Shown here in pieces: positions 1,450 through 21,165 of a DNA stretch of 22,808 nucleotides. The notes under the pieces are model-generated. The model was given only the letters and a program-made list of their open reading frames with translations, made no database searches and was not told the DNA's origin. Every line of letters starts with the position of its first letter. Within the stretch, counting starts at the first letter, position 1. The DNA is taken from positions 1-22,808 of the forward strand of contig JANLOX010000029.1 in assembly GCA_031366795.1 (NCBI GenBank). Reading direction: 5' to 3'. This stretch comes from Candidatus Eiseniibacteriota bacterium. GTDB taxonomy: Bacteria > Eisenbacteria > RBG-16-71-46. Both the position numbers and the translations under genes were made by a program.

Positions 1450-4017
1450 GTGACAACCCATTTGGGTTTAAACGAGGCTCATCGTTTGTCATCGATCAAA
1501 GTCCTGGTCGCGGCCACGTCCCCCGACATCAAAGCCGCAGGAATCGCGGCCGCAGTGGCGGCCCGCAGCGACATGACGCTTGCGGAGAGCCGCGTCGTGA
1601 TGGTGGCGGAGATCGCCGCGCTGCTCGAGCCGAACTCGCCGTCCGGACCCCGCGCCCTGGTGCTCGTTGGCCCCCAAGTCCACACCGAAGAGCCGGCGGA
1701 CTGCTGGCTGGCCGCGCGGCCCGACTTTGTCGTCGTGCGCGTGGATGCTCCGATCGGCGACGTCGTGCGATTTGCCCTGCAGAACCTCGGCCTGTCCGAG
1801 TTGCTGTCCGAAATTCGCGCGCTCGTCGACCGCGCCGCCGCTGAACCGCAGGAGCGGGTGGCGCATTTTCAGCTGCGAGCCGTCTCTACGCTCGGCGGGC
1901 GAGGCGCCGAAGACACCTCTGTGGGGCGCACCGCGTTGAACGCGGCGATGGAATGGATCCATGTGGTGCTGCGCAGCGCCGTGTCGAAGCTGGCCGCAGG
2001 CAACGGTGACCTGCCCGGCCTGACGCTGAGCGCGGCGACGGTCGCCGATTTCCTCGACGCCAAGCCTGCACGCGCCGCGGCGGACATGGCCGCCGATGTC
2101 AAGACCGCCGACGCCGAACTGTCGCGGGTGCTGGCGGCCAACGATGCGCAGTTCGAGTCGCTGGTTCGCGCGGCCCGCGTGTTCCGCTTGAGCGCCATGG
2201 AAGTTCGCCTGCTTCTACTGGCCCTGGCGCCGGAGTTGGACTTTCGCTATCAGCGCTGCATGGGGCTGTTGCTCGACGACATGGGCCGGCGCGTTGGCAC
2301 GATCGGTCTCTGCGCCACGCTGCTGGGCGAGCCGTCGCAGGTCCGTCACGAGTTGGCGCAGAGCGGAAACCTCGAGCGGTGGCGCGTGCTGGACGGCCAC
2401 CCCGGCATCCTCCCGCCCGCCGACGAGCCACTGCGGCTGGATCCTTCCATCGTGGGGTGGCTGTTCGGCAATGACAGCTCGCTGCGCTACGACCGGCACG
2501 CCCGCCGCGCCATGCGGCTTGCGGCTTGGCCGGGTCGCTCGCTGCTGGACGGACATGCGGAGCGCGCACACGCGGCGGAGCTGGTGGATCGGCTTCGAGG
2601 CGAGGGCGAGGTGCAATGGCTGGTGCTCGGCAGCGCCGATTCCGCGGGCTGGCGAGCGCTGCTCGAGCTCGGTGCCGAGGCGAGACAGGCAGGACTCGTC
2701 CGCGTCGACGCCGCACGCCTCGCTGGCATCGAGGTCGATGAGTCCGAGGAGTGCGGAGTGCGACTGGGCCGGATGGCCCGTCTGACCGAGAGCGCACTCG
2801 TCATCGATGCGACCAGCCTGGACGGTTCCGCTCAAGAAGATGACGCCCTCCGCGTCTTCCTTGCCGCAGTCGCGCGGACCGAGGTTCGCGCCGCGGTCAT
2901 CTCCAACGACGAGGCCCGGGTCGTTCGCCTGCTCGGTTCGATGCCCTACGAGGTTAAACGGACGGCCTTGGACCGTGCTGCACGCATTGCGACGGTGCGC
3001 GCCGCCGCAGCTGGTGCGGACGCCTACTTCACCGAGGCGGCGGCGGATGCGGTCGCGACCCAGTATTCGTTGGGCGTCAACGGCCTAGAGCAGGCGATGC
3101 GGCTGGCGCGCGGCCGGCCACTCGCCCATGGCATCGACGACCCTCGTGCCACGCGCTTCATGGCAGCGTGCAAGGACGTCGCGGCCGAAGGCATCTCCAG
3201 CGTCGCTGAACGCATCGAGCCGATCTTCGGCATCGACGACGTGGTTCTTCCGCCGGACCGCAAGGACCAGTTGATCGAGATCGTGGACAGCATCCGCCTC
3301 GCGCCGAAGGTGCTCGATGGCTGGAAGTTCCGCGAGCAGCTGCCGTACGGCCGCGGTGTCACCGCGCTTTTCCACGGCCCGAGCGGCACCGGCAAGACGA
3401 TGGCGGCGATGGCGGTGGCGAAGAAGCTGGGCGTGCAAATTCTCCGGCTCGATCTGTCGCGCGTCGTCAGCAAGTACATCGGCGACACCGAGAAGAACAT
3501 CGACCGCGTCTTCGTCGATGCACAGCGCTCGGGTTCTGCGATCCTGATCGACGAGGCGGATGCGCTGTTCGGCAAGCGCAGCGAGGTCAAGGACGCCCAC
3601 GATCGCTACGCCAACATCGAGGTCGCGTTCCTGCTGCAGCGCATGGAGGCCTACGAGGGGTTGGCGATTCTCACGACCAACCTACGGCAGAACCTGGATC
3701 CGGCCTTCCTCAGGCGGCTGCGCTTCATCGTCGATTTCCCGCGGCCCGACACCGATGCGCGCGAGAAGATCTGGCGCCGCTGCCTGCCAGAGGAATCGCA
3801 TGCGCTCAACGACGCCGCCTTCCGGCAACTGGCGCGGCGCATCGACCTGACCGGTGGGCACATTCGTCAGATCACGCTGCGCGCGGCCTTCATTGCGGCC
3901 GCGTCCGACACACCCATCGGCATCGAACACATCGCCCATGCCTGCCGCGCCGAACTGGCGAAGCTCGGCATGCCGCCGATGGAGATCGAGCCCGCCGAGC
4001 GAAGGAATGCAGCGTGA
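1450..4017 (+). CDS. eCIS AAA+ ATPase (Afp15/Pvc15-like), 855 aa, with N-terminal extension
   Basis: C-terminal AAA module: Walker A GPSGTGKT, Walker B ILIDEADALFGKR, DRYANIEVAFLLQRME, AILTTN, AFLRRLRF. Family-typical FRLSAMEVRLLLLALAPELD..Y segment. First ATPase module appears degenerate. GTG start is uncertain. Confidence 0.92.
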   Translation: MTTHLGLNEAHRLSSIKVLVAATSPDIKAAGIAAAVAARSDMTLAESRVVMVAEIAALLEPNSPSGPRALVLVGPQVHTEEPADCWLAARPDFVVVRVDAPIGDVVRFALQNLGLSELLSEIRALVDRAAAEPQERVAHFQLRAVSTLGGRGAEDTSVGRTALNAAMEWIHVVLRSAVSKLAAGNGDLPGLTLSAATVADFLDAKPARAAADMAADVKTADAELSRVLAANDAQFESLVRAARVFRLSAMEVRLLLLALAPELDFRYQRCMGLLLDDMGRRVGTIGLCATLLGEPSQVRHELAQSGNLERWRVLDGHPGILPPADEPLRLDPSIVGWLFGNDSSLRYDRHARRAMRLAAWPGRSLLDGHAERAHAAELVDRLRGEGEVQWLVLGSADSAGWRALLELGAEARQAGLVRVDAARLAGIEVDESEECGVRLGRMARLTESALVIDATSLDGSAQEDDALRVFLAAVARTEVRAAVISNDEARVVRLLGSMPYEVKRTALDRAARIATVRAAAAGADAYFTEAAADAVATQYSLGVNGLEQAMRLARGRPLAHGIDDPRATRFMAACKDVAAEGISSVAERIEPIFGIDDVVLPPDRKDQLIEIVDSIRLAPKVLDGWKFREQLPYGRGVTALFHGPSGTGKTMAAMAVAKKLGVQILRLDLSRVVSKYIGDTEKNIDRVFVDAQRSGSAILIDEADALFGKRSEVKDAHDRYANIEVAFLLQRMEAYEGLAILTTNLRQNLDPAFLRRLRFIVDFPRPDTDAREKIWRRCLPEESHALNDAAFRQLARRIDLTGGHIRQITLRAAFIAAASDTPIGIEHIAHACRAELAKLGMPPMEIEPAERRNAA

Positions 4018-4598
4018 ACGGCAGAGCGCTACTTCATGTGACGAACGCGTTGCGCGCGCGCTTGAAATCGGCGCTCGACGCGTCGCGCGTGCCGGGAACG
4101 GTGTTCGTCGGGTCGCTCGGCGACGCCGACGCCAATGGTGCCGCGCTGATCCTGTTTCTCTATCGGGTCGAGCCGCACGCATCCCTGCGCAACGACGAGC
4201 ACCGTGTGGCATCGGGGACTGCCGCGTCCCCCGTCGACGTGTTCCGCAATTCGCTGCCGCTGAACCTCTATTTCCTCGTCACGGTGGGAACGCTGCCGGG
4301 CTCGAGCGAGGAAACATTGCTGGGCGCGCTCGGTTTCGCGATGCAGGCCTTGCAGGCCGATCCCGAGTTGACCGGGGCGTCGCTAGACCACGAGGCGGTG
4401 CATCTGTCGCTCGAGTCGCTGGGCACCGAAGAGCTCAGCCGGATCTGGGCTCTGTTTCCCACGGCCAACTACCGCACGTCGATCGTGTACCTCGCGTCGC
4501 CGGTGTGGATCGATCCGCTGTTGCCGTTGGCCGCATCGAAGCCGGTGACGGAGGACTCGCTGTTCGCCGGTGCCAAGGTCGCGGAGACGACGCCATGA
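4014..4598 (+). CDS. DUF4255/Pvc16-like tail terminator (cap) protein, 194 aa
   Basis: Motifs LILFLYRVEPHASLRN, LPLNLYFLVT, EELSRIWALF..YRTSIVY typical of DUF4255. GTGA overlap with the ATPase stop. Confidence 0.88.
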   Translation: MNGRALLHVTNALRARLKSALDASRVPGTVFVGSLGDADANGAALILFLYRVEPHASLRNDEHRVASGTAASPVDVFRNSLPLNLYFLVTVGTLPGSSEETLLGALGFAMQALQADPELTGASLDHEAVHLSLESLGTEELSRIWALFPTANYRTSIVYLASPVWIDPLLPLAASKPVTEDSLFAGAKVAETTP

Positions 4599-5263
4599 GC
4601 CGGCCGTTCGACATCCATCTGCCGCTCGAGCTGGCCTATCGGCGCAGCGTGCTGTTTGCGATCGAGGTTCTCGACGCGGTGACGCTCGGCAGGGTGAGCC
4701 AGGGGGTCAAGGTCACGGCCACGGGCCTGAAAGGCCTTCCAATCGTCAATGCCGGTGGCCTCTTCGTATGGCTTCGCGAGGATTCGACAGCACTGCAGAA
4801 GGTCTCGATCGATCCCGGCGTGCTGCCCCTGGAGAGCGTCGAGCTCTCGGCGGCCGACGTGCAGATGCCGCTGTCGATCGTCGAGTTGGCGCCGCGCAGC
4901 GACTATCCCTTCCCGTCGGGGATCGCCGGCATTCGCTCGTCCCTCGTCGAACATCGCGTGACGCCGCCGGCGCGTCCCCAGCCCGTGCCGAACGCCGAAG
5001 TACGGCTCACCTGGCTGGACGACGACGGTGTGACGTGGCACGACTCGCCCACAAGGTCGCACACGAGTGCGCGCGGTGATTTCGCAGCGATCCTGAGGTT
5101 TGCCCGGGCCGACGTCCCAAGCCTGGATACCCACGGCGCCCTGAGCGTTCGCCTTCGCATGATCCGCGACGGGCAGACCGAGCTCGGGACCGCCGCTTTT
5201 GCGCTTCCGCAAGGCCGCGTCGCGGACGGGCCGACCTATGCGTGGGACGAACTGCAGCCCTGA
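4595..5263 (+). CDS. Hypothetical eCIS protein, 222 aa, beta-rich; possible cap-associated protein
   Basis: True start is most likely ATG 4595 (MSRPFDIHLPLE), overlapping the DUF4255 stop with GGAG upstream, not 3854 as in the ORF track. Segments IEVLDAVT..VSQGV.V, L.PRSDYPFP.G and PVPNAEVRL resemble Ig/carboxypeptidase-regulatory-like strands. Confidence 0.7.
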   Translation: MSRPFDIHLPLELAYRRSVLFAIEVLDAVTLGRVSQGVKVTATGLKGLPIVNAGGLFVWLREDSTALQKVSIDPGVLPLESVELSAADVQMPLSIVELAPRSDYPFPSGIAGIRSSLVEHRVTPPARPQPVPNAEVRLTWLDDDGVTWHDSPTRSHTSARGDFAAILRFARADVPSLDTHGALSVRLRMIRDGQTELGTAAFALPQGRVADGPTYAWDELQP

Positions 5264-5285
5264 GTCCGCACAAGGAGACCGACCC

Positions 5286-6458
5286 ATGACCACCTACACG
5301 CGACTGCCCACCGGACACACACCTTCTCCGCAAAACGCGCCGCGCGGCGACGGCGAACACTGTGATCCCGGCACTCCTGCCACCCCGGCCGATCAGCCCA
5401 AGGACCCGGGGTGCGACTGCGCCGACTACCCGGTGAGCAAGCCACCGGTGCTCAAGGAACCCGACAAATGCGAGGAGTCCGATTGCAACTGTCCCAAGCC
5501 GCCGACCTCGACGATCAGCTGCCTTGACAAGTTGATTGCCCAGCAGGCCAAGGAGATCAGCGAGGCTGACCGCGCCAAGCTGTTCAAGGCAGATCTGGAA
5601 GCGCTACTGGTGAAGACCAAGGCCGCGACCATCGACTACACACAAGACAAATACAACAAGCTCGTCAACGATTGGGTACGGCTCGACGCCCTGATCGCCG
5701 AGTTGATCCGCAAGCTGGTCTGCGCGGTGCCGTGCTGGAAGTGCCTCATCGAGTGCTACGTCTGCCCGCTGCTCTACGAGATCCGCTACCGCGAGCAATT
5801 GCTCTACGGCGACGGCACGCAGTACAGCACGGTGGGCTCGCTCTACGACCAGCGCTACTGGCACGACCGCAACCGCGACATGAAGAGGCGCGCATTGGAC
5901 CGCATCAAGGCGGTGCTGGCGGCCTGGGAGAAGCCCGCCCAGACGATCGAGAAGACGCTGACGGACAACGAGAAACTGATCGCCGATGCGGGCAAGCTGC
6001 TCGCGACGAACGCAACGAGCGCCGTCTACGACGTCTTCCTGCGCCTGGTCCCGCTGCATCTGGCCATCGCACCGCCGGCGAGTTTGGGCAAGGTCACCAG
6101 GATCTCGAGCGAATACACCGAGATTTGCGAGTGCGACGAAGGCTATCCGGACGACTGCTGCGGACCCGACTTGGGCGTCACGACCCTGCGCCAGCGCCTC
6201 ATCGGCCCGCAGCCGTACCTCATCCTTCCGGGCGACTACTACAAGGTCATCTGCTGCATCACCGAGAAGCGCTACCTGCCCGCCAAGGACGCCTGGTCGG
6301 CCGCCGAGTCGATGTTCGAGAGCGTCGACGCCCAGATCAAGACCTACCAGAAGGACATCGACGACAAGCTGAACGCGCTCGAGAAGAGCGTCAAGGCCGC
6401 GCTGCCCCCGGACTGCAAGATCTTGGAAACGCCGCAGCAAGACCCCACGGCCAGCTGA
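5286..6458 (+). CDS. Cysteine-rich, largely helical hypothetical protein, 390 aa
   Basis: AAGGAG at 5272-5277 before ATG 5286; strongly biased codon usage; 19 Cys in clusters (CDC, CNC, CAVPCWKCLIECYVC, CEC, CC, CC); Pro-rich N-terminus; Lys/Asp/Glu-rich helical stretches. Confidence 0.85.
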   Translation: MTTYTRLPTGHTPSPQNAPRGDGEHCDPGTPATPADQPKDPGCDCADYPVSKPPVLKEPDKCEESDCNCPKPPTSTISCLDKLIAQQAKEISEADRAKLFKADLEALLVKTKAATIDYTQDKYNKLVNDWVRLDALIAELIRKLVCAVPCWKCLIECYVCPLLYEIRYREQLLYGDGTQYSTVGSLYDQRYWHDRNRDMKRRALDRIKAVLAAWEKPAQTIEKTLTDNEKLIADAGKLLATNATSAVYDVFLRLVPLHLAIAPPASLGKVTRISSEYTEICECDEGYPDDCCGPDLGVTTLRQRLIGPQPYLILPGDYYKVICCITEKRYLPAKDAWSAAESMFESVDAQIKTYQKDIDDKLNALEKSVKAALPPDCKILETPQQDPTAS

Positions 6459-6479: not shown

Positions 6480-8024
6480 ATGCCCGAATACCTCCACCCA
6501 GGCGTTTACATCGAAGAGATCGAGCGCGGACCGAAGCCGATCGAGGGCGTGCCGACGAGCACCGCTGCGTTCGTCGGCGAGACTGAGCGGGGCAGCATCA
6601 AGCCGACCCTGGTCACCAGCTACAAGGACTACCAGCGCTATTTCGGGGGCGTGTTCGGCGACCACAAGTACATGCCCTACGCCGTCAACGGCTTCTTTGA
6701 AAACGGCGGCAAGCGCATGTTCGTGTGCCGCGTGGTCGACCAGGGCGCCGCCAAGGCGAGCGTCGCGTTCGGCAATTTCACGGTCGAGGCCGTCGGCCCC
6801 GGCCTGTGGGGCAATCGTGTTTACGCGCAGATCGACGACAGCAAGACGAAGAAACCGGACGGGGCCGGCGGTGCCGTCGCCGTCGGCTTCCGCCTGCGGC
6901 TCGCGTACTACGCGTCGACCCCCACGCAGGATCCGAAGGCATGGTTCGACGATCCGACCAAACCCCCGCGTCCCGCGTTCTCGGAGACTTTCGAGGACCT
7001 CGTGGTCGACGAGAACTCCCCCGACTACTTCGACAAGCGGCTGCGCGACAGCTCGTCGCTCGCGACGCTGGTGCGCGGCGCCGGCGCTGCCGCCGGCGAG
7101 CTGCCGGCCCGGGAGTTTCACCCGCTCGCGAGCGGAGACGACGGAACCGTTCCGCTGGACAGCGCGGACTTTGTCGGCGTGAAGGATGCGCAACGGGCGG
7201 ATTTCCAGGGGCTCGCGGCGCTGCGGCTCGATCCCTACCGCGAGGTCTCTCTGGTCTACGCGCCTGGCGTGGAGTTCGACATCGCGCGCGAGGTGGTGAC
7301 GCATTGCGAGTTGCTCAGGTACCGCTTCGCGGTGGTCGACGCCGCGAAGACAACGGTGGTTTCCACCTTCGAGCCGCGCAATGAGGTCACCGACACCAAG
7401 TACGCGGCGCTGTACTACCCGTGGATCTGGATCTCGGACCCGCAGACCGGTGCCCGCAAGCTGATGCCGCCGGGCGGCCACGTGCTCGGGATTTACGGGC
7501 GAACCGATTCGGAGCGCGGGGTGTTCAAGGCACCCGCCAACGAGATCGTGCGCGGCGCGCTGGAGCTGCAGGTCGACACCGACGACAACACGCAGGACTC
7601 GCTCAACCCGAAGGGAATCAATGCGATCCGCGAGTTTCCCGGGCGCGGCATCCGCGTCTGGGGCGCGCGTACGCTCAGCTCCGACGGCCTGTGGAAGTAC
7701 GTGAGCGTGCGCCGGCTGTTCATCTTCCTCGAGCGCTCGATCTACGAGGGCACGCAGTGGGTGGTGTTCGAGCCCAACGACGACCGGCTGTGGGCCCGCG
7801 TGGTCGACACGATCCGGCTCTTCCTGCGCGGCCAGTGGCGGCTCAGCGCGCTCTTCGGTCGCACCGAGCAGGAAGCGTTCTTCATCACCTGCGACCGAAC
7901 CACGATGACCCAGGACGACATTCTCAACGGCCGGCTGATCTGCGAGATCGGCATCGCGCCGGTGAGGCCGGCCGAGTTCGTCGTGTTCCGCATCTTCCAG
8001 AACACCGCTGAAGCGCAGCGATAG
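6480..8024 (+). CDS. Contractile tail sheath protein (Afp2/3/4-like), 514 aa
   Basis: N-terminal MPEYLHPGVYIEE..G.KPIEGVPTS, AALYYPWI, RGVFKAPANE, GIRVWGARTL, WKYVSVRR, WVVFEPND, IGIAPVRPAEFVVFRI. GGAG upstream. Confidence 0.97.
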   Translation: MPEYLHPGVYIEEIERGPKPIEGVPTSTAAFVGETERGSIKPTLVTSYKDYQRYFGGVFGDHKYMPYAVNGFFENGGKRMFVCRVVDQGAAKASVAFGNFTVEAVGPGLWGNRVYAQIDDSKTKKPDGAGGAVAVGFRLRLAYYASTPTQDPKAWFDDPTKPPRPAFSETFEDLVVDENSPDYFDKRLRDSSSLATLVRGAGAAAGELPAREFHPLASGDDGTVPLDSADFVGVKDAQRADFQGLAALRLDPYREVSLVYAPGVEFDIAREVVTHCELLRYRFAVVDAAKTTVVSTFEPRNEVTDTKYAALYYPWIWISDPQTGARKLMPPGGHVLGIYGRTDSERGVFKAPANEIVRGALELQVDTDDNTQDSLNPKGINAIREFPGRGIRVWGARTLSSDGLWKYVSVRRLFIFLERSIYEGTQWVVFEPNDDRLWARVVDTIRLFLRGQWRLSALFGRTEQEAFFITCDRTTMTQDDILNGRLICEIGIAPVRPAEFVVFRIFQNTAEAQR

Positions 8025-9079: not shown

Positions 9080-9505
9080 ATGGCGCGCCAGGATCCCTTG
9101 CGAGGCTTCCGCTACCTGGTCGAGATCGACGGGATCGCGAGCGGCGGCTTCGCGCGCGTGAAGGGGATCAGCCGCGAAGTGAAGCATGAATCGCACCGCG
9201 AGGGTGGAGTCAACGACTACGAGCACAAGCTCGTGACACAGGTGTCCTATCCCGTCGTGGTGCTCGAGCGCGGACTCGCGCTGGATGACCTCTGGAAATG
9301 GGCCCTCGCGGCGGCCGACGGCGACGTGACACGCAAGACGGTATTCGTGCGCCTGCAGGATGAGGCCGACCGCAAGGCATGGGCGTGGCAGATCGAGAGC
9401 GCGTTCCCGGTCAAGTGGTCGTCGTCGGACCTCGACGCGGTGTCGTCGCAGGTGGTGATGGAAAGCCTTGAACTCGCCCACCATGGCCTGAGGAAGGCGA
9501 CATGA
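9080..9505 (+). CDS. Second tail tube protein (gp19-like, Afp5-like), 141 aa
   Basis: QDPLRGFRYLVEIDG, REGGVN...HKL, VVLERG, AFPVKW...LDA....V.MESLELAHHG; paralogous to 8034..8477. GAGGA upstream. Confidence 0.93.
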   Translation: MARQDPLRGFRYLVEIDGIASGGFARVKGISREVKHESHREGGVNDYEHKLVTQVSYPVVVLERGLALDDLWKWALAAADGDVTRKTVFVRLQDEADRKAWAWQIESAFPVKWSSSDLDAVSSQVVMESLELAHHGLRKAT

Positions 9506-10881
9506 TCGCGACCCGCCGGCTTGCCCTGGCAGCACGCGCCACCGCGGCCCGCTTCGCGCGGCGCCGGTCGTGCACACGCTCGGGAGCGCGGCTGCCGGCG
9601 TGGTTTCCGCTCTCGCTGCTATGGGCACCCAGGCGCAAGCGGCTGAGCGCGAAACCCGCGGCGACCAGCTCCGGCGCGGCCGGCATCGGCACGAGTGCCG
9701 GTCTCGTCACACAGGTCTCGCATTTGCATCGGCATTGGCATCTCGCGCTGCGCGTCGACCGGGAGCCGCACAACGCGACGGCTGTGTCGCCCGCGCTCGG
9801 CTGGGTGCGTCACGCGGTGCGCACGAGCGCCACCGAATGGCGTCGACGCATCGATCCCGGGTTGGCGCCGGCGGCTCCCGGGATGGTGCCCCGGCCTCCG
9901 CCGCAGCGCGCCGATGACGCGCGCGGCAGCATCGGGGGAACGGCGCGACCGACAGCGCGCGACGATGCAGGGGCGGCATCGTCGCCGCTGGCTGAACCCG
10001 GGCCGTCACCGCGCGGTGACGGGTCCGGGTCGCCGCCCGTCAGCCTCTGGTCGCACCGGCCCTTGGCCCTGGTTCGACGCAGCGGCAGTTCGGCCCGCAC
10101 GACGGCCGCACCGACGTCCGCCGCCGGCGCGTCGCCACCGCTCGCCGCATGGCCCGGCCAGAGGCCCGCGACCGCGCAGACCACGCCGGCGCTCGCCACT
10201 CGCAGCGTGACGCGGCACGCACTCGATCCCACCGAGGCGCCCGCGCTGCCGATGTCTCGGCGGCCGCACGTCGGGCCGTCCAAATCGACCCGTGGCGCGG
10301 CGAGTTCGTCCGCGGCCGCGCCGTCTTCCGCACGCAGTTCCGCGCCGATGGAACGCGCGCCGTCATCGCCGCCGCTTGCGCAGCCACGCAACATCGCCGC
10401 CGACGCGCCGCCCGTGGTCACGCCGGTGACGACGTGGCGCCGCGTCGTACCGACGAAGCAGACGACCTCCCGCCGCACGACCGCGCTCGTGTGGCCCCCC
10501 ACCACGCGCAACGACCGGCGGGGCGGTGACACCAACAACGCCGCTGCGCCCTCGACCTGGCGCCGCGCTGCGCCCCCCGCGACGCCGTCGTCGCGTCACA
10601 CGGCGGAGCTGGTGTGGTCCACCCGCGAACGTGGCGACTTGCGCGCCGGCGACACCGCCGGCAGTGCCTACGCAGCAGCCGGCTCGGCGAGCGCATCAGG
10701 CATGTCGGCCAGCGCCACCACGACCGAACTCACGCCCCAAGCGGCCACAGCCGCTGCGCGAGCCCTCGCAGCGCAACGCGCGAACCCGTTCGACACCGCA
10801 CTGATCGATCGCCTCGCCGAGGACGTGATCCGTCGTGTCGAGCGGCGTGTGCGCATCGAACGCGAGCGGCGCGGACTGTGA
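9502..10881 (+). CDS. Ala/Pro/Arg/Thr/Ser-rich low-complexity eCIS protein with conserved-looking C-terminal helix, 459 aa
   Basis: Fills the gap between tube 2 and the Afp7-like gene with an ATGA overlap; ends IDRLAEDVIRRVERRVRIERERRGL, a type of C-terminus seen at this position in eCIS loci. Start and internal frame are less certain. Confidence 0.68.
   Translation: MIATRRLALAARATAARFARRRSCTRSGARLPAWFPLSLLWAPRRKRLSAKPAATSSGAAGIGTSAGLVTQVSHLHRHWHLALRVDREPHNATAVSPALGWVRHAVRTSATEWRRRIDPGLAPAAPGMVPRPPPQRADDARGSIGGTARPTARDDAGAASSPLAEPGPSPRGDGSGSPPVSLWSHRPLALVRRSGSSARTTAAPTSAAGASPPLAAWPGQRPATAQTTPALATRSVTRHALDPTEAPALPMSRRPHVGPSKSTRGAASSSAAAPSSARSSAPMERAPSSPPLAQPRNIAADAPPVVTPVTTWRRVVPTKQTTSRRTTALVWPPTTRNDRRGGDTNNAAAPSTWRRAAPPATPSSRHTAELVWSTRERGDLRAGDTAGSAYAAAGSASASGMSASATTTELTPQAATAAARALAAQRANPFDTALIDRLAEDVIRRVERRVRIERERRGL
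10432..10656 (+). repeat. Two in-frame 34-aa internal repeats (period 123 nt)
   Basis: 10432-10533 TWRRVVPTKQTTSRRTTALVWPPTTRNDRRGGDT vs 10555-10656 TWRRAAPPATPSSRHTAELVWSTRERGDLRAGDT; 17/34 identical without gaps. Confidence 0.75.
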
Positions 10882-13607: not shown

Positions 13608-14032
13608 AAACTACTGCGCCCACCGACGATCGCAAGGACTTCCTCGGCCGCGGATGGGCGATGCCGGTGGCGCTCGACCCGCGCACCCGCCAGGTCGCGT
13701 TCGCCGAGTACGAGGACGACATCCGGCAGGCGATCTTCATCATTCTCGAGACCGCCCCCGGCGAGCGCCTGATGCGGCCGAACTTCGGCTGCGGCATCCA
13801 CGAGCTGGTGTTCGCCGCGCTCGACAGCACCACGCTGCAGCGCATCCGCTCGGAGGTGCAGGACGCGCTGCGCCGCTACGAGGCGCGCATCGACGTGCTC
13901 GGCGTCGGCGTCGACGAGGCCGCCAGCGCCGAAGGCAAGCTGCTGGTCGAAATCGAGTACCGCGTGCGCAAGACCAACCAGCTCGGCAACCTCGTGTTCC
14001 CGTTCTACTTCCTCGAAGGAGGGCGTCTGTGA
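13604..14032 (+). CDS. GPW/gp25-family baseplate protein (Afp9-like), 142 aa
   Basis: DFLGRGWAMP, DIRQAI.IIL.T.PGERLMRPNFGCG, RYEARI, NLVFPFY. Confidence 0.95.
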   Translation: MKTTAPTDDRKDFLGRGWAMPVALDPRTRQVAFAEYEDDIRQAIFIILETAPGERLMRPNFGCGIHELVFAALDSTTLQRIRSEVQDALRRYEARIDVLGVGVDEAASAEGKLLVEIEYRVRKTNQLGNLVFPFYFLEGGRL

Positions 14033-17000
14033 AAGCACCGCAGTCCCCGTCGCTCGACCCGCGGCGCGAACATAACTTCGAGGCCGAGCTGACAGCACGC
14101 GCCCGTGCCTGGGTGCCCGCGTGGGGTTTCGAGGACGGCGGCCACGATTTCGGCCACGCGCTGCTACAGGTCGCCTCGCAGTTCAACGCGAAGGTCGCCG
14201 AAGGCCTCGACCGAGGCGGCGACAAGATGCAGCGCGGCTTCCTCGACTGGCTCGCGGTGCGTGGCGATGCGGCCCGGCCGGCGCGCATGCCGGTCGTCTT
14301 CAAGATGGTCGACAAGGCGCCCGCCGCGGTGCTCGCGCTTGCCCCGGTGCGCATGCAGGTCGACGCGCAGGACGCCACCGTGGTGTTCGAGACCGAGGAC
14401 GACGTGCGCGTGATCCCGGGGCGCCTCGAGGTGGTGGTCGCCACCGACGCCGACCAGGACGCGATCTTTCTGCAAATGCCCGGGCTCACCTCGATCGAGC
14501 CGCTCAAGCCGCTGCCCACGCAATGGCGCCTGAAGAGCTTTGCCGCGGCGGGGTCGACCCAGTTGCAGCTCGACCCCGAGGTCGGCCTGGTCGCCGGCCT
14601 GGTCGTCGAGCTGGCGGGCCTGCAGTACCGGATCGACAAGGTCGACAAGGACATCGTGACGATCGACCCTGCGCTGCCCACGGGTGCCGGCGTCGAGGCG
14701 GGGAGCGTCGCGCACATGGTGATGGCTTTCGAGCCCTTCAATCCCTCGGCGCGCAACCGCCAGCAGCATGCCGTCTACCTCGGGCATCTCGACCTGCTCA
14801 ACATCGAGGCTGCGGCCACCATCGACGTGATCGGCGCGCAGGCGCTCGGTGCCGGCGCGACCTGGGCGTACTGGGGCAAGGTCGCCGGCCAAGACAGCGT
14901 CGCCTGGCAAGCGCTGGCGCTGGCCAAGACGCAGCCGAGCGACGGCGTGCGCCTGGACAAGCCCCGAGGCGCGGTCGAGCCGCGCGACCTGGGTGCGGTG
15001 AAGAAGGCACGCTGGATCGGCGCCTTCACCCCGAATGTTCTCGGCAACGCGCCCACGCTCTCGGTCGACGCGCTCGAGCTGCGCATCAACTTCCGCCCCG
15101 AGCCGGCGTGCCCGATCGTCAACGCCGACGACAGCACTACGCTGGCCGCGCAAGCGCTGGCGAACACGACACCGCTGGTGCTGAGCGGCGTGTTCTACCC
15201 CTTGGGCCGCACGCCGCGCCAGTTCGACACCTTTTACCTCGGGTGCCCGGAGGCCTTCTCGAAGCCGGGGGCCCACGTGCAGCTGTGCTTCGAACTGGCC
15301 GACCCGACCTCGTACGCGCTGTCGACGGTTCACCACGGTGCGTTTGCCGAGGCGGTGCTTGCGGGCGTGGGCCAGGACCGGGCTCTGCACCTGTTTGAAT
15401 TCAAGCCCGCGCAGGCGACGGTTTCGCCGCTGTTCGCCCGCGAGCCGCTGCAGCCCCCCTCGCCGGTCTACAACGCCAGCCCGCTGAGCGTGCTACCGAT
15501 TCCGCTCGACGCCAAACCGACCTACCGCCTGCCGATGTGGGCCGAAGGCCAAGACTTCGTGGTGGCGACGGTGGCCGGCTCGCACGTCTGGCTGTGGCGC
15601 GAGGTCGCGGCAGACTCCAAGAAAAGCGGTTGGCGCGATTTGGGCGTGTTGCCCACCGGCGTGGCGAAACCGCCGCCGGTCGACGGCCTGGTCTACCTCG
15701 GCGGCAATCCGTCTCCGCGCCTCGTCGCGCTGCAAGACGGCCGGCTCTCGCTGCGTGCGATGACCGACGCTGCGACGTGGGTGGAAGTGATCCCCAAAGA
15801 CGGCGCGGACAAGCACGTCGTGCTGAAGGCCATCGCCGCGATCCTCGTCATCGATGGCACCGGACGGCTGGTCACGTCGGCCGCGGAGGACCTGGTCGGC
15901 GTGGACGCCGACGGCAAGCTCTACCGCGTGACCACCGCGGGCATCTGCACCTATTTGAACGTGCCGGCGTTGTCGACGCGGGTGACGCCGATTGCGCTGA
16001 AACACAACGGGGGGCTCACCGTCGTCGCGGCGGAGAAATCGCTGACCATGCTCGTCGCGCTCAAACCCACCGGCGGCGTGAGCTCGCAGCGCATCGACGC
16101 CGTGGCCACGATTCTGGGCTTCTCGCTCGAGGCGACGCTGGACGGCATCGATCTCGCCTGCCTGGCCAGCGCGCGCGACGAGTCCGCGGCCTATCTCGTC
16201 ACCTGGGTTCCCGCGGCCACCGGTGCCAGGGCGGAGATTTTCAAGAGCGAGGTGCCCGCCAGCGCGGGCCGAATCGGCGGCGCGCCCACCCGCATTGCCA
16301 CGCAGGTACTGATTCCCGGCGAGAACGGCGACGCGGTCGTCGCCCCCTTCGACCTCGGTCGCCGGTTGAAGCTGAATGCGGACGTCGAGACGGGCATCGT
16401 CGTTCCCGCCGGCGCACCCGCGCTCGCCGTGAACGACGTGATCACGCTTCGGATCGCCAACAACCTGCGCGTCAAGAAAATTGACGGTGCCGGCGTGACG
16501 CGCGCCACCGAAACGTTCCACCCGATCGCCGGCACGTTCGGCGCAGGGCCCGTCACCCGCGAACTCCTCGCGTACCGCATGTCGACCGGAGCCACCGGCA
16601 ATGTTCTCGGTCTCAAAAAATTCGAGCTGGCCCCGGGAGAGCACGGCGTCGCGGCCGACTCGACGCTGCTGATCCAGATCGGCGCGGTGGCGCACGAATA
16701 TGTCGTCGACAGCGTCGCGGTCGCGAGCTCTGCCTGGATCGTGACGCTGGCCAGCGCGTTGCCGGCGGGTGCCACCGGCAACGCCAGCTATTGGCTGCCG
16801 GTTCAAACGGGCGGACGCATCGCGCCGTTCGCCCGCCTGAACCCGGCGCATCTGAACGAGAAGTGCGACGTGACGCTGCTCGAGCACGGAGCGCTCGTTT
16901 TTCCGGGCGCTAAGCCCGAACGCCAGACGGCGCAGGCGTTCGCCACGGTGACCAACTTCGCCACGCTCGTCGTGATGGGTGAAAACTTCGCTGCCGCTCC

Positions 17001-19140
17001 CGTGCCGGGGGCGAACGCGAAGTTCCTGCTCGACTCCGCGGTGGGTGATTGGTCGCACCAGTTGGGCGACGGGGTTTCGAACCCCGAACTGTCGTGGGAA
17101 TACTGGAACGGCGCGTGGTCGAAACTCATCATCGAACCCGACGAAACGCTGAACCTGAAGTCGACCGGCGCGTTGCGCTTCGTGGTTCCGCCAGACATCG
17201 GGCCGACCGACTGGGCTGGCAAGACGAGCTTCTGGGTCCGCGCGCGCCTCGTCGGCGGCGACTACGGCTCCGAGGAAGTCACCGTGCTCATCGAGGACTT
17301 GGGCAACCGCAAGACGAAACAGACGATCCAGCGCTCGTCCAAGGGCATCCGCCCACCGTCCGTCGTGAACCTCGGAATCTCGTATTCGATGCGCGACGGC
17401 GTGATGCCGGCGTACGTGCTCGCCGAGGACAGCGGTTCGATTCGCGACCAGAGCGATGCGAATCGCACCGAAGGCGCGATCGTCGAAGGCTTCATTCCCC
17501 TGGCCGTCACACTCGGGCGCCTGCGGGCCGGCGATGCAGCCACACCGACGGCGCCCGTCGAACCCTGTCCGCCCGAGTGCGACTGCGCAGACGGCTTGGT
17601 TGCCACCGCAGCAACCGCGGCGACCGGCGCCTCGACCCCGGCCAGCGCATCGGCGGCGGTCACGGTCGCCACCGGACGCGCGCTGTTTCTGGGCTTCGAC
17701 GCCGACCTGTCCGGCGCCTCGGTGAACGTGCTTTTCGTTAGCGCTCGCGAACACGACCACGCGGCGCTCGCGCCCCTGCGCGTCGATGCGCTGGTGGGCA
17801 ACCGGTTCGTTCCACTCGTTTCGCGCGACGGCACACGCGCGCTGGGCGAGACCGGCTTGCTCACGCTGGCGTTCTCGCAGCCGCCGACGCGCGCCGAGCT
17901 GTTCGGCCGCACGCTCGTGTGGCTGCGGCTGGCGCCGACCACGAAAGCGGCCGGAGACGGCGCGGCCTGGCAGCCGAGCCTGACGGGCGCCTACCTCAAC
18001 GCCGCATGGGTGAGTGCCACCGAAACCTTGACGCGCGAACTGCTGGGTTCTTCCGAAGGTGCACCCGACCTGACGCTAAAACTGGCCCGACCGCCGGTGC
18101 TGCGTGATTCGCTCGAGCTGCGGGTGCGCGATCTCCTGGGTGACGAGGAGCGCCAGGCCCTGCAAGCGGCAGACCCCGATCTGGTGCTGAACGACGCCGA
18201 TCTGCCCGGCGACTGGGTGCGCTGGAAACAGGTCGCCGATCCCGCCGACGCGGGCCCCGCCGAGCGTGTCTTTGCATTCGACGAAACCACCGGTGTCCTC
18301 CGCTTCGGCGATGGCCTGCACGGCGCCATTCCTCCGGTGGGCCGCGACTCGATCGTCGCGTTCCGGTATCAGCGCACCGAACCCCCGGTCAAGGGAGCTG
18401 TCGACGTTCCGGCGAACACCATCGAGGCGCGGGCCCAGCTCAACCTCGTGACGCCGGTGGGCGGTGTCGAAGCGGTGTTCTCGGCCGACCATGCGGCCGG
18501 TGGGGCGCCGCCCGAGCCCGACGACCGCGTGCTGCGTTTCGGCTCGGCCAAGCTGCGTCACCGCGGCCGCGCCGTCACCGCGCGCGATCTCGAAGACCTC
18601 GCGCTGGCGAGTTCCCCCGACATCGTGCAGGCACGTGCGCTCGTGCAGCCCAGGCACACGCGCTTGGTCGTCGTGATGCGCGGCCCCACGCCCGCCCCGA
18701 CGCTGGCGCAGCGCCGCGAACTCGGCCGGCTGCTGCTCGGCGTGGCACCATTCACGTTCGGCGCCGCCAGCGGCTTCGCGATCGACGGCCCGCGCATCCG
18801 CCAGCTGCGCATCCGGCTCGCGCTGCGGGTCGAGGGCCTCGACCACGCAGGACGTGTCGCGCAGCAAGTCGCCGCGCGTCTCGAAACGTTTTTCGACAGC
18901 GCCACCGGCGGGCTCGCGGGCGACGGCTGGCCCCTCGGCGCGAACCCTCGCGAGGACGACATCGCGCTGTCTCTGCTCGACCTGGCGCATCTGCACAGCA
19001 TCGCTGCCGTCAGCCTCGTCGAAGCCGTCGACGACACGACCGAGCGCCCATGGCCCGGGACCTTGAAGCCGGACCAGATCGTACGTCTGGCCGACGATGC
19101 GATCCGCTTTGAATTCCAGAGCATGGAGGTCGCCGCGTGA
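14029..19140 (+). CDS. Very large baseplate J/gp6-like wedge protein (Afp11/12 class) with a long internal insertion, 1703 aa
   Basis: True start is most likely GTG 14029 (GAAGGAGG upstream, GTGA overlap), not 13654. Motifs P.LDPR, VFET, FYPLG..P..FDTFYL, LSWEYWNG.W, WVRARL..GDYG, ELLGSS.G.P, G..RFGDG.HG.IPP, AAGG..PE, LRHR.RAVT..D.E.LA. Confidence 0.88.
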   Translation: MKAPQSPSLDPRREHNFEAELTARARAWVPAWGFEDGGHDFGHALLQVASQFNAKVAEGLDRGGDKMQRGFLDWLAVRGDAARPARMPVVFKMVDKAPAAVLALAPVRMQVDAQDATVVFETEDDVRVIPGRLEVVVATDADQDAIFLQMPGLTSIEPLKPLPTQWRLKSFAAAGSTQLQLDPEVGLVAGLVVELAGLQYRIDKVDKDIVTIDPALPTGAGVEAGSVAHMVMAFEPFNPSARNRQQHAVYLGHLDLLNIEAAATIDVIGAQALGAGATWAYWGKVAGQDSVAWQALALAKTQPSDGVRLDKPRGAVEPRDLGAVKKARWIGAFTPNVLGNAPTLSVDALELRINFRPEPACPIVNADDSTTLAAQALANTTPLVLSGVFYPLGRTPRQFDTFYLGCPEAFSKPGAHVQLCFELADPTSYALSTVHHGAFAEAVLAGVGQDRALHLFEFKPAQATVSPLFAREPLQPPSPVYNASPLSVLPIPLDAKPTYRLPMWAEGQDFVVATVAGSHVWLWREVAADSKKSGWRDLGVLPTGVAKPPPVDGLVYLGGNPSPRLVALQDGRLSLRAMTDAATWVEVIPKDGADKHVVLKAIAAILVIDGTGRLVTSAAEDLVGVDADGKLYRVTTAGICTYLNVPALSTRVTPIALKHNGGLTVVAAEKSLTMLVALKPTGGVSSQRIDAVATILGFSLEATLDGIDLACLASARDESAAYLVTWVPAATGARAEIFKSEVPASAGRIGGAPTRIATQVLIPGENGDAVVAPFDLGRRLKLNADVETGIVVPAGAPALAVNDVITLRIANNLRVKKIDGAGVTRATETFHPIAGTFGAGPVTRELLAYRMSTGATGNVLGLKKFELAPGEHGVAADSTLLIQIGAVAHEYVVDSVAVASSAWIVTLASALPAGATGNASYWLPVQTGGRIAPFARLNPAHLNEKCDVTLLEHGALVFPGAKPERQTAQAFATVTNFATLVVMGENFAAAPVPGANAKFLLDSAVGDWSHQLGDGVSNPELSWEYWNGAWSKLIIEPDETLNLKSTGALRFVVPPDIGPTDWAGKTSFWVRARLVGGDYGSEEVTVLIEDLGNRKTKQTIQRSSKGIRPPSVVNLGISYSMRDGVMPAYVLAEDSGSIRDQSDANRTEGAIVEGFIPLAVTLGRLRAGDAATPTAPVEPCPPECDCADGLVATAATAATGASTPASASAAVTVATGRALFLGFDADLSGASVNVLFVSAREHDHAALAPLRVDALVGNRFVPLVSRDGTRALGETGLLTLAFSQPPTRAELFGRTLVWLRLAPTTKAAGDGAAWQPSLTGAYLNAAWVSATETLTRELLGSSEGAPDLTLKLARPPVLRDSLELRVRDLLGDEERQALQAADPDLVLNDADLPGDWVRWKQVADPADAGPAERVFAFDETTGVLRFGDGLHGAIPPVGRDSIVAFRYQRTEPPVKGAVDVPANTIEARAQLNLVTPVGGVEAVFSADHAAGGAPPEPDDRVLRFGSAKLRHRGRAVTARDLEDLALASSPDIVQARALVQPRHTRLVVVMRGPTPAPTLAQRRELGRLLLGVAPFTFGAASGFAIDGPRIRQLRIRLALRVEGLDHAGRVAQQVAARLETFFDSATGGLAGDGWPLGANPREDDIALSLLDLAHLHSIAAVSLVEAVDDTTERPWPGTLKPDQIVRLADDAIRFEFQSMEVAA

Positions 19141-21089
19141 GCCAGCTTTCGCCGCTGCTGTTCGATCTGCGCTACGACGACCTGGTGGAACTCGGGCGCT
19201 CGCGCCTGCCCGCACTCGCCCCGCCGTGGACCGACCACAACGCGCACGACCCCGGCATCACGCTGATCGAGTTGCTCGCGTGGGTCGCCGAAGCGCAGCT
19301 GTATTCGCTCGGGCGGATGCGCCGCGACGAGCGAGCGGCCTACGCCGCGCTGTTCGGCGTGGGCGCGGCGGGCACCCGCGCGGCACGCGGGCTGCTGTGG
19401 GTCGATCGCTCCGATGCCGCATCGCCGGCCACCACCCTGCGCGATGCCCTCGTCGTCGAGCCCGATGCCGTGGTGCACCTGGCCGACGACGACACCTTGG
19501 TGTTCCACCCCGCCTTCAAGACGCTCTTCGCGCCGGGTCGCATCGTCGCCCTGCGCTCGCGCGCGTCGGGCGGTGCCGTGCGTGACCACACATCGGCCAA
19601 CGAACGGGGTGGCTCCGCGTTCCTGCCGTTCGGCGACGCCGCCGGGCCGCGCGACGTGCTGACGCTGGAGTACGAAACACGGGCCGATGGCGGCGTCGTT
19701 CCGTCGGCCGCAGCGGACGCGTCCGGCGCCCATTGGGTGATCGGGATTCGTGTCGCCGAGGGCACCCCCCGCGCCGCCGAATCGCCGGATGCCGGCAGCG
19801 CGGGTGAGGCGGGAGAGGTCGGTCGGCTCAGCGTGGCCTTGCTCACCGCCACCGACCGGTTTTCACTGCCGGTGGTGGAGGACTCCAGCCAAACCATGCT
19901 GCGCACCGGTGCGCTGGTGCTCGACATGTCGCAGGTGCAGGGTTCGCCCGCGGCGTTCAGCCTCGAGTTCCGCGCACCGCGCGGGCTGCCGCGGGCGCCG
20001 CGTGTGTTGCGCATCGAGCCCAACGTGCTGCCGATCACGCAGCGCCGCAGCATCGTCGGCGAACTCCACGTCGCCAATGGCCAACCCGACCTGGATGTCG
20101 AGCTCGACACGCCGGGCCTGTGTTTCGACGCGGGTGACGAGCCGGTCCAGGTGGAGGTGCGCGACACCACCACGTCGACCGTCTGGACGCGCTGCGAGCA
20201 CCTGTCCGACCAGGGCCCAAACGACAACACGTTCGAGTTCGACGAGACTGCGGCGCGGCTGCTGTTCGGCAACGGCCACAACGGTCGCCGGCCCGTGGCG
20301 GACGCCCAGGTGCTCGTGTCGTACCCGGTAAGCGATGGGGAGGACGGCAACGTGGCGCGCAACCGGACGTGGCGCGTCGCCGGCGTCGCGGGCACCTTCG
20401 GCGTCAACCTGGACCCGGTGTACGGCGGCAAGGGCCGGCTCGACGGCACGGACCTGAGGCGCGAGGCACGCCGCCGTGCGCGCGACGACCACGCCCTCGT
20501 GAGCGCGGCCGACATCGAGGCCGCCGCGAAGTCGCTGCCTTTGCTTGAGGTGATTCGCGCCTGGGTGCCGCCACTGCGCCAAGGCGTGCCGCAGACAGGA
20601 ACGGTCACGCTGATCGCGATGCGCAGCCGGCCCGGGAACGTCGAGCCCGCGCAAGCGCTGGAGACGCCGCGCTGGCTCGAAGCCGTTCGCCGCCAGCTCG
20701 CCGGGCGGATGCCGCTGGGCACACGCCTCGCCGTGTCGGCGCCTCGGTATGTGGGCTTCGCGATTCGCGCACAACTGCAGATCGAGCGTGGACGCGACCC
20801 CCGGCAGATCGAAGCCAAGGTGCGCGAAGCGCTGCGCCAACGGCTCGCGCTGGTGCCCACCGAGGGCACGGCGAAACCCCGCGAACCCGGCATCCCGGTG
20901 ACATCGCGCGACGTGGCGGCGTGGATCCGCAGCGTCGACGGCGTGGCCGACGTGCTGCCGCTCGCGCTGGTCGCCGGGACGAACAGTGTCGGCGAGATCG
21001 TGGTGCCGCATGACGGCCTGCCGCAGCTCGACCTCGACCAGAGCGACATCCGTGCGCAGCGCGCGGCGACGACGGGGAGCGCGGCATGA
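19137..21089 (+). CDS. Second baseplate J/gp6-like protein (putative baseplate assembly protein), 650 aa
   Basis: L.D.RY.DLV, WTDHNAHDPGITLIELLAW, FLPFG, LLFGNG.NGRRP, ALVSAADIE..A, PLGTRL.V..P.Y. GTGA overlap. Confidence 0.9.
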   Translation: MSQLSPLLFDLRYDDLVELGRSRLPALAPPWTDHNAHDPGITLIELLAWVAEAQLYSLGRMRRDERAAYAALFGVGAAGTRAARGLLWVDRSDAASPATTLRDALVVEPDAVVHLADDDTLVFHPAFKTLFAPGRIVALRSRASGGAVRDHTSANERGGSAFLPFGDAAGPRDVLTLEYETRADGGVVPSAAADASGAHWVIGIRVAEGTPRAAESPDAGSAGEAGEVGRLSVALLTATDRFSLPVVEDSSQTMLRTGALVLDMSQVQGSPAAFSLEFRAPRGLPRAPRVLRIEPNVLPITQRRSIVGELHVANGQPDLDVELDTPGLCFDAGDEPVQVEVRDTTTSTVWTRCEHLSDQGPNDNTFEFDETAARLLFGNGHNGRRPVADAQVLVSYPVSDGEDGNVARNRTWRVAGVAGTFGVNLDPVYGGKGRLDGTDLRREARRRARDDHALVSAADIEAAAKSLPLLEVIRAWVPPLRQGVPQTGTVTLIAMRSRPGNVEPAQALETPRWLEAVRRQLAGRMPLGTRLAVSAPRYVGFAIRAQLQIERGRDPRQIEAKVREALRQRLALVPTEGTAKPREPGIPVTSRDVAAWIRSVDGVADVLPLALVAGTNSVGEIVVPHDGLPQLDLDQSDIRAQRAATTGSAA

Positions 21090-21165
21090 GCGCGCCCCGC
21101 CCACGCGGCTACCACTTCGCCTCGGCGGCACAGTGGAAGGCGTGCCTGCTGTCGCGGGGGGACGC
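21086..21165 (+). pseudogene. 5' stub (~26 codons) of the next eCIS gene, probably a tail/baseplate protein, cut off by a sequence junction
   Basis: ATGA overlap with GGGGAG upstream; MSAPRPRGYHFASAAQWKACLLSRGD reads like a real N-terminus, after which the frame becomes Ser/Arg/Cys-rich antisense-like sequence. Junction position is approximate. Confidence 0.5.

Follow-up and report, generated by a model that had tools for sequence, protein, structure and literature searches.

The stretch of DNA analysed here (the window) is contig JANLOX010000029.1, 22,808 nucleotides from a Candidatus Eiseniibacteriota bacterium (assembly GCA_031366795.1), and it carries an extracellular contractile injection system (eCIS) gene cluster in which an unannotated gene for a 390-residue, cysteine-rich protein lies directly upstream of the tail sheath gene. 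The window makes up a complete contig (C227) in a genome bin (G000) of 4.18 Mb and 474 contigs, and its composition is ordinary for the bin (GC z = +1.0; tetranucleotide 72nd percentile). The operon block opens with the gene for an AAA+ ATPase, continues with a short cap (tail terminator) gene and a gene for a 222-residue β-sandwich protein, and then reaches the 390-residue protein and the sheath (Table 1); start and stop codons overlap at the ATPase/cap junction (GTGA) and at the cap/222-residue protein junction (ATGA). Downstream of the sheath gene are genes for a tube protein, a small open reading frame (ORF), a second tube protein, a tape-measure candidate (9502–10881), a CIS_tube protein and a gpD-like hub, and past the hub come a gp5 OB-domain protein, PAAR, gp25 and two baseplate proteins. 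The eCIS core set (PF04984/PF17482 sheath, PF06841 tube in two copies, PF00004 ATPase and PF14065 terminator) is thus encoded together with a spike and baseplate set (PF05954, PF04717, PF05488, PF04965 and PF04865; the PF05954 hub match, at 27.2 bits, is below the curated cut-off of 30.1 bits). With both groups of marker genes present, the locus is an eCIS gene cluster of the kind represented by the antifeeding prophage (Afp) and the Photorhabdus virulence cassettes (PVC).

The frame encoding the 390-residue protein has no internal stops, and its GC content at third codon positions (GC3; 0.88) is close to that of the sheath gene (0.895) and the first tube gene (0.845). A preliminary description of the window, made from the sequence alone, had reported 390 residues, 19 Cys, a strong ribosome-binding site and a codon bias like that of the sheath and tube genes, and all of these hold. 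The 19 Cys are residues 26, 43, 45, 62, 67, 69, 79, 146, 150, 153, 157, 160, 281, 283, 291, 292, 323, 324 and 377. The first 78 residues contain 16 Pro and 6 Cys, including the pairs C43xC45 and C67xC69, and the remaining clusters are CAVPCWKCLIECYVC (146–160), CEC...CC (281–292) and CC (323–324), so that the Pro-rich N-terminus with CxC pairs and the Cys clusters are present as originally described. In agreement with the stated lack of a signal peptide, a Kyte–Doolittle scan in 19-residue windows detected neither a hydrophobic N-terminus nor a transmembrane-like segment, the highest mean (1.58) falling at the Cys cluster 146–160.

Cysteine makes up 4.9% of the 390-residue protein, compared with 3.1% of PAAR and 0–1.0% of the remaining eCIS proteins; its gene is the only Cys-rich one among the window's eCIS genes. 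Contigs from a second study (runs X3 and X4), assembled independently, carry the ORF without any difference, and in strain variants from runs X5 and X6 none of the 16 listed differences in the ORF falls in a Cys codon; no RNA data set was listed as covering the stretch. Because the Cys share so exceeds that of most neighbours, 17 of the 19 Cys are invariant among homologues and the pattern recurs (see below), the high Cys content is not due to chance; it is confirmed, as is the ORF itself.

Scans with Pfam (E ≤ 0.01), NCBIfam and PHROGs gave no family match to the 390-residue protein, and a profile built from 118 homologues gave no match to PDB sequences at E ≤ 1, in line with the initial view that it belongs to no recognised family and has no counterpart among Afp1–16. 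Look-ups in a protein atlas, with it and with the distant family member P0196, likewise returned no usable match. Two standard roles were considered and rejected. The protein is not the Afp16/Pvc16 cap protein, as the Pfam scan places the Pvc16_N domain (DUF4255) not in it but on the separate cap gene (4014–4598). Nor is it the Afp14 tape measure, a long protein, helical or of low complexity, whose gene stands between those for the tube and those for the tube initiator and hub; that slot is taken by ORF 9502–10881, and the gene for the 390-residue protein lies upstream of the sheath gene.

A word-indexed search returned 595 homologues at E ≤ 1e-3, the best 120 of which are 50–95% identical to the query; the listed homologues are named 'hypothetical protein' throughout, bar one JGI entry, 'uncharacterized protein Usg'. 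An exhaustive search yielded 161 representative clusters at 50% identity, and a profile search with distant members added just three close relatives of one of them (P0241). Genomic context is available for 14 loci, 13 from species-representative genomes and one on a metagenome contig (L023). The sheath gene immediately follows the family gene in 13 of 13 genome loci, and in 14 of 14 when L023, which holds a relative of the distant member P0281, is included. Where the contig extends, the order is ATPase, a Pvc16_N ORF of 192–194 residues, an ORF of about 225 residues, the family gene and the sheath, and L023 has the same order. The ATPase is syntenic in 12 of the 13 genome loci, the 13th being cut, and counterparts of the Pvc16_N gene occur in all 12 loci examined; the sheath is 64–69% identical across the 13 loci. 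These loci are labelled Thermoanaerobaculia, Pyrinomonadaceae, Blastocatellia, other Acidobacteriota, Gemmatimonadetes, Candidatus Binatia, Anaeromyxobacteraceae, Nitrospira and Burkholderiales, at least six phylum-level groups in all. Each of the five carrier genomes searched has a single copy of the family. The preliminary description had proposed asking whether homologues occur only in eCIS loci at this position, and among the 14 loci with context they do; its wording that the gene was 'inserted' before the sheath gene was wrong, the gene being conserved at that place in related loci.

Within the window's own phylum, the family is found in one of 206 genomes, the source genome itself, and a sheath homologue is found in 17, the other 16 at ≤ 42% identity. 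Among 401 sampled Acidobacteriota genomes, two give strong matches to the family profile (E 1e-102 and 2e-96), and it is precisely these two that carry a full-length sheath, 72% and 64% identical (one of them, G234, is an unpublished genome). The other 44 Acidobacteriota sheath carriers (≤ 58% identity, mostly partial) lack the family; six weak matches (E 4e-5 to 5e-4 over 57–83 profile positions), three of which fall in ORFs of more than 2100 residues, were not accepted. Loci with sheaths at 47–57% identity (L025–L028), considered as possible sister lineages, have little in common with the window locus beyond the sheath. Because the family co-occurs only with a close sheath and keeps a fixed position in 14 of 14 loci, the gene is not a private insertion but travels with one eCIS lineage, which is sporadic within each phylum. 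In a survey of the literature on contractile injection systems we found no description of the family, though it could appear, as an accessory cluster without a name, in the supplementary tables of PMC8213781 and PMC10020575.

Two observations bear on variation within the family. The N-terminus is a hotspot of length change: P0174 has about 220 residues of Gly/Thr/Asn-rich repeats there and P0191 about 150 residues of PYPPPEDGG-type repeats, and in P0172 about 150 residues at the C-terminus make up an Ala-zipper-like coiled coil. The possibility that P0174 is a fusion of the family with the β-sandwich protein was rejected (hhalign probability 0.2), its extension consisting of low-complexity repeats. 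Furthermore, the sediment metagenomes X3 and X4 contain a contig of about 4.1–4.3 kb that matches only patches of the gene, at 80–90%; this diverged second member indicates that more than one variant of the eCIS lineage co-occurs there.

The mean pairwise identity of the family (0.55) is that of the ATPase (0.56) and the β-sandwich protein (0.55), compared with 0.74 for the sheath and 0.79 for the tube, showing that the 390-residue protein evolves at the pace of the ATPase and the β-sandwich protein. Distances within the family correlate with those of the other locus genes at Spearman coefficients of 0.25–0.74, the related loci not being independent.

Using an alignment of 118 sequences as input, AlphaFold2 predicted the 390-residue protein to be an elongated, all-helical rod (mean predicted local distance difference test (pLDDT) score 89.3; predicted template modelling score 0.83), with helices at residues 78–117, 120–147, 151–174, 186–213, 217–241, 243–260, 301–306 and 315–372, consistent with the long helices noted from the sequence. 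The Pro-rich N-terminal segment (the N-arm) has no predicted secondary structure, and its residues 31–60 have pLDDT values of 91–92; the model thus predicts that it lies ordered along the helical bundle and is not disordered. The largely non-helical stretch between the core and the last helix contains the conserved motif PDDCCGPD. A Foldseek search with the model gave no match at E ≤ 1e-3 in either PDB or BFVD. The best Z was 8.1 in a VIA-align comparison with 48,161 chains and 7.0 when the Foldseek PDB list was re-aligned; all of these are matches to generic long-helix or coiled-coil proteins and lie below the tool's threshold for helical models. The monomer prediction and Foldseek search that had been suggested therefore return a confident helical rod that, as modelled, has no recognisable solved relative, which is not proof of a new fold.

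Table 1. The gene for the 390-residue protein, its parts, and the flanking genes of the operon block
Feature	Position	Strand	Basis
Gene for 390-residue, 19-Cys protein of an unannotated eCIS-linked family	5286..6458	+	ORF, alignment, profile search, AlphaFold2 model
Shine–Dalgarno sequence AAGGAG, 8 nt ahead of the ATG of this gene	5272..5277	+	Read from the sequence
N-terminal Pro-rich arm, residues 1–78, with conserved Cys 26, 45, 62, 67 and 69	5286..5519	+	Alignment, AlphaFold2 model
Predicted helical core, residues 79–260, six helices from 78–117 to 243–260	5520..6065	+	AlphaFold2 model
Cys stripe C146-x3-C150-x2-C153-x3-C157-x2-C160	5721..5765	+	End of predicted helix 120–147 and along predicted helix 151–174
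Mostly non-helical (predicted) Cys-rich stretch, residues 261–314, with C281, C283, C291 and C292	6066..6227	+	Alignment, AlphaFold2 model
Predicted 58-residue C-terminal helix, residues 315–372, with C323 and C324	6228..6401	+	AlphaFold2 model
AAA+ ATPase (Afp15-like), first gene of the operon block	1450..4017	+	PF00004 (E 4e-26), PF22977 winged helix
Short cap/tail terminator, Pvc16_N only, 194 residues, GTG start	4014..4598	+	PF14065 (E 3e-26), GC3 frame
222-residue protein with two predicted β-sandwich domains	4595..5263	+	Own family, AlphaFold2 model, fold matches
Tail sheath gene, directly 3′ of the gene for the 390-residue protein	6480..8024	+	PF04984, PF17482

The cysteines are conserved in a modular manner. 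In an alignment of 25 sequences (51–76% identity), the check proposed at the outset for invariant cysteines, 17 of the 19 Cys never vary and C26 hardly does; C43 occurs in just a few sequences. Among 207 family members of 280–460 residues, three tiers can be distinguished. The exact 18-Cys pattern is present in 101 members (tier 1), and about 50 more differ from it at one or two positions, mostly C26. Members of tier 2 (P0246, P0241, P0247 and P0254 among them) have no N-arm and hold six to eight Cys in total: C79, C146, C160, C281, C291 and C324 are kept, C292 and C377 are variably present, and the N-arm residues C26, C45, C62, C67 and C69 are gone together with the bundle residues C150, C153, C157, C283 and C323. 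Members of tier 3 (P0196 with nine near-identical cluster members, P0199, P0203 and P0224) are almost Cys-free; a search of metagenome contigs with P0196 recovered no locus, leaving this tier without genomic context. Distant members nevertheless retain Y118, W130, W151, L254, P256, H258, P263, P310 and P315, and the invariant residues (W, Y, P, L and one H) form no catalytic-looking motif. Because relatives with six to eight or almost no Cys keep these fold-signature residues, the cysteines are a reinforcement added later to a fold that can do without them.

The conserved cysteines, 18 in all, come in even-numbered sets: a 5 + 5 set is lost jointly, and six to eight are left in tier 2. On this ground we infer that they act as pairwise staples, most simply disulfides tying the N-arm to the helices. 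Twin Cx3C/Cx9C proteins of the mitochondrial intermembrane space, small two-helix proteins with helix-to-helix disulfide staples, offer a partial likeness, in that the Cx3C spacings at 146–150 and 153–157 would put Cys on one face of a helix; those proteins differ in being small and two-helical, no homology is implied, and the pairing in the 390-residue protein is putative.

The same cysteines could be read in another way. The protein might be a cytoplasmic assembly factor or a redox or metal sensor, that is, a helical scaffold holding Zn or Fe–S that works with the ATPase and the cap proteins while sheath and tube polymerise, or gates this polymerisation, and does not remain in the mature particle. 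Metal binding is the usual role of conserved Cys clusters in proteins of the cytoplasm, eCIS are put together in that reducing compartment, in which disulfides do not form, and the gene shares an operon with those for the ATPase and the cap; there is also a functional parallel in TssA, a helical protein that coordinates sheath–tube assembly in the type VI secretion system. In particular, the series C150-x2-C153-x3-C157-x2-C160-P resembles the ferredoxin motif, CxxCxxCxxxCP. Its spacing is different, however, and a ferredoxin-type 4Fe–4S site was rejected on that basis; furthermore, the stripe lies within a predicted helix, on one face of which C153, C157 and C160 would sit, unlike the loop-borne motifs of Fe–S proteins. 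Metal binding cannot be the core function, because Cys-poor relatives, with six to eight or almost no Cys, keep the fold signature (Y118, W130, W151, H258 and the prolines), and tier 2, as seen in L023, keeps the position in the locus as well. Finally, the loss of ten Cys as one set (5 + 5), with six to eight left, fits pairs better than four-ligand sites. We therefore regard an assembly or metal-binding factor as unlikely.

The immediate upstream neighbour may bear on where such a rod belongs. The 222-residue protein has its own family (235 matches, every one named 'hypothetical'), and no Pfam, NCBIfam or PHROG model matched it in our scans. AlphaFold2 predicted two β-sandwich domains (pLDDT 91.4), with matches to pilin (CnaB/pilin), SlaB and transthyretin-like folds (Foldseek E 7e-5 to 1e-3; VIA Z 8–9.3), folds that are themselves common. 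In AlgoCIS, the cap protein Alg16A is a 197-residue protein matching only the N-terminal domain of Pvc16/Afp16, and the cap adaptor Alg16B, composed of an immunoglobulin (Ig)-like domain and a β-barrel, connects the cap with the last sheath ring and is required for particles to form properly (PMC8894135). Similarly, the eCIS-type cluster of the window has a 194-residue, Pvc16_N-only cap followed by a separate β-sandwich protein, and the latter may be a positional analogue of the cap adaptor, the likeness being one of position and domain type only. The two systems differ in the third, helical, Cys-rich gene, which is not among the AlgoCIS parts described in the accessible text of PMC8894135, and the 390-residue protein resembles neither Alg16A nor Alg16B in sequence or fold.

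Our favoured reading, to which we assign a probability of about 0.4, is that the 390-residue protein is not cargo but a structural subunit specific to this lineage, which probably belongs to the distal cap module. A built-in part is favoured because the gene occurs once, always at the same place, its identity across loci is like that of the ATPase and the β-sandwich protein, its invariant residues are not catalytic-looking, and its N-arm is conserved, predicted to be ordered and absent in basal relatives. We give slightly better than an even chance to a structural role as against that of cargo or of a factor acting only transiently; disulfide staples in the released particle come next in confidence, and the placement with the cap and adaptor at the distal end is the most tentative, being suggested by analogy with the split cap and cap adaptor of AlgoCIS and because the three genes adjoin just upstream of the sheath gene. 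In such an arrangement, a rod with helices of up to 58 residues, its Pro-rich N-arm ordered along it, would stand together with the short cap and the adaptor-like β-sandwich protein at the distal end. The 18 conserved Cys would act as pairwise staples, five between the N-arm and the bundle and four within the bundle, most likely as disulfides formed once the particle meets an oxidising medium, and they would harden a surface-exposed part.

Sco4256 offers a precedent of a kind. Its gene presumably lies, to go by the SCO gene numbers, between the ATPase and terminator genes and the sheath gene. The protein, from the class IId eCIS of Streptomyces coelicolor, has no assigned function, is conserved in its class and was found in all three particle purifications (PMC10020575). 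Like the 390-residue protein, it is conserved within a lineage and rarely occurs away from eCIS regions. A lineage-specific extra eCIS protein that co-purifies with the particle has thus been seen before, in the case of Sco4256 (PMC10020575). The two differ in architecture: the first domain of Sco4256 is pilus-chaperone-like (Ig-like) and is accompanied by a transmembrane region and, in some cases, by a toxin or lectin domain, whereas the 390-residue protein is predicted to be all-helical and lacks a transmembrane segment, and no homology between them was detected.

Several points weigh against a structural role at the cap. The placement in the particle, at the cap or elsewhere, is drawn by analogy, and the Foldseek and VIA searches of the 222-residue protein returned no AlgoCIS chain among the listed matches, so that 'cap adaptor' is an analogy too. 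The cysteines could bind Zn or Fe–S instead of pairing, assembly taking place in the reducing cytoplasm. The position after the cap genes could also be read as a payload slot, and distances within the family track those of the ATPase most closely (Spearman 0.74), a signal that is weak either way because the sequences are related. Moreover, a recognisable eCIS_core toxin is present in just one of the three complete loci of the lineage.

Some of these points would suit a conserved, non-enzymatic cargo, a rod loaded into the tube lumen by the AAA ATPase through its N-terminal extension and injected, which might then act on membranes or bind a target. In the Afp/PVC gene order, payloads come after afp16, and the ATPase in PVC handles payload loading; the gene here follows the cap genes, and its top correlation is with the ATPase, weakly so given that the loci are not independent. 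The N-terminal extensions also vary, being absent, 78 residues long, or composed of 150–220 residues of low-complexity repeats (P0191, P0174), and a narrow helical rod could fit the tube lumen. In these respects (a gene after the cap gene, an N-terminal extension before the folded part and an AAA ATPase in the locus) the system does resemble that of PVC/Afp payloads (bioRxiv 10.1101/2023.08.15.553202). However, a PVC-type payload carries a toxin or enzyme domain and varies between loci, and here no such domain was found and the same gene occupies the same position in 14 of 14 loci, in single copy and without swapping. The invariant W, Y, P, L and one H include nothing catalytic-looking, and no pore-forming or other toxin fold was matched by the model, a missing match being weak evidence. 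The leader of a PVC-type payload is disordered, poorly conserved and about 50 residues long; the N-arm has invariant or near-invariant motifs, is Cys-bearing and predicted to be ordered (pLDDT 91–92 at 31–60), and is absent from basal relatives at the same locus position, which argues against a disordered loading leader of the kind that the preliminary description had brought up.

In one related locus a likely payload lies elsewhere. In the three complete loci of the lineage, the baseplate genes are followed by genes for a Tail_P2_I-like protein, a protein of 470–726 residues and one of 281–285 residues, and in two of them (L029 and L030) a protein of 1148–1174 residues is next. Specifically, the 1148-residue protein at L030:11628–15074, from a Gemmatimonadetes-labelled metagenome-assembled genome, combines eCIS_core (PF13699/DUF4157, E 9e-33) with Endonuclea_NS_2, a pair typical of eCIS toxins (PMC8213781), and is likely the nuclease payload of that locus; its 1174-residue counterpart in L029 gave no Pfam match. 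Strict synteny, single copy and this nuclease at the 3′ end of L030 weaken the cargo half of the original alternative, a lumen-loaded effector or a metal-binding or disulfide-crosslinked structural protein, to the point where we consider it improbable, and a Cys-crosslinked structural protein fits best.

A structural protein could also be placed outside the cap. As an external appendage, the rod would stiffen the sheath surface or extend from the baseplate like a fibre, alone or with the β-sandwich protein, and it might link particles. The position directly upstream of the sheath gene, the strong ribosome-binding site and the sheath-like GC3 are consistent with this, as are the long Pro-rich or Gly/Thr/Asn-rich N-terminal spacers and the C-terminal Ala-zipper coiled coil of some members, features often found in surface proteins. 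There are also contractile machines in which disulfides do comparable work: in phage Pam3 they attach the fibre to the wedge (PMC9942802), in phage Milano they form a network that locks the sheath (PMC10811340), and in AlgoCIS the C268–C1000 bond of Alg11 is needed for firing (bioRxiv 10.1101/2025.10.08.681156). Common to these cases and to the one proposed here is that Cys harden or gate an extracellular contractile machine. In Pam3, Milano and AlgoCIS, however, the Cys sit in standard parts (sheath, wedge, fibre), whereas here a dedicated extra protein would hold up to nine putative pairs and the standard parts are Cys-poor. That the other eCIS proteins of the window are not Cys-rich disfavours an intermolecular disulfide dock of the Pam3 type, and genes are already present at the usual fibre position, after the Tail_P2_I-like gene, both in the complete loci and on a second contig of the bin (C332); an appendage is thus doubtful. 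Alg16A, Alg16B, Sco4256 and the Pam3 and Alg11 proteins are not homologous to the 390-residue protein.

A more elaborate form of the distal-cap reading, which we hold to be improbable and which would make the protein a new class of eCIS component, is a three-part distal 'crown', in which a new-fold rod locked by up to nine disulfides would join the short cap and the β-sandwich adaptor. The disulfides would form only after the particle leaves the reducing cytoplasm, so that its oxidation state would set stability or firing readiness, as a redox timer shared across at least six phyla.

The gene for the 390-residue protein is, in any of these cases, a real, conserved and lineage-restricted eCIS gene of an unannotated family with a modular Cys pattern. 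Its product is more likely an integral, so far undescribed component of the particle than a toxin that can be exchanged. Protein-delivery devices are being built from eCIS, with the parts list treated as Afp1–16 plus payloads. A widespread soil and sediment lineage has two extra, strictly conserved genes between cap and sheath, for the Cys-rich rod and the β-sandwich protein, and domain-based surveys miss both because no Pfam, NCBIfam or PHROG model matched either in our scans. If the rod is a particle part, it would add a new structural element, and possibly a redox-dependent stabilisation, to the known architectures; its graded relatives, with 18, six to eight and almost no Cys, amount to a natural experiment on what the cysteines contribute.

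Some features of the remaining locus were also noted. An ORF at 3854–5263 is an artefact of an open alternative frame and represents two genes (4014–4598 and 4595–5263), because GC3 switches frame near 4600 and Pvc16_N lies in ORF 4014–4598. The 459-residue ORF at 9502–10881, between the second tube and CIS_tube genes, is of low complexity and rich in Ala, Arg, Ser, Thr and Pro, with an Arg/Glu-rich C-terminus of ordinary composition; it was found by tblastn in almost none of the 13 loci, where a similar-sized gene fills the slot, and it is the probable tape measure. At 13654–19140, a gp6/Baseplate-assembly-like protein of 1828 residues matches TIGR02243 only at 1450–1770, and its long N-terminal part, 40–47% identical across loci, could be a large baseplate extension analogous to the 'cage' of AlgoCIS. 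Past the Baseplate_J-like gene (19137–21089), the remaining stretch (21086–22808) has a Carb_kinase (NAD(P)H-hydrate dehydratase)-like ORF, after which the contig ends, and the next three eCIS genes begin at base 5 of C332 (4,720 bp) of the same bin. The assembly may be broken here, the contig end may be chimeric, or a strain variant may have a truncated locus. The eCIS genes on C332 encode a Tail_P2_I-like protein and proteins of about 500 and about 250 residues.

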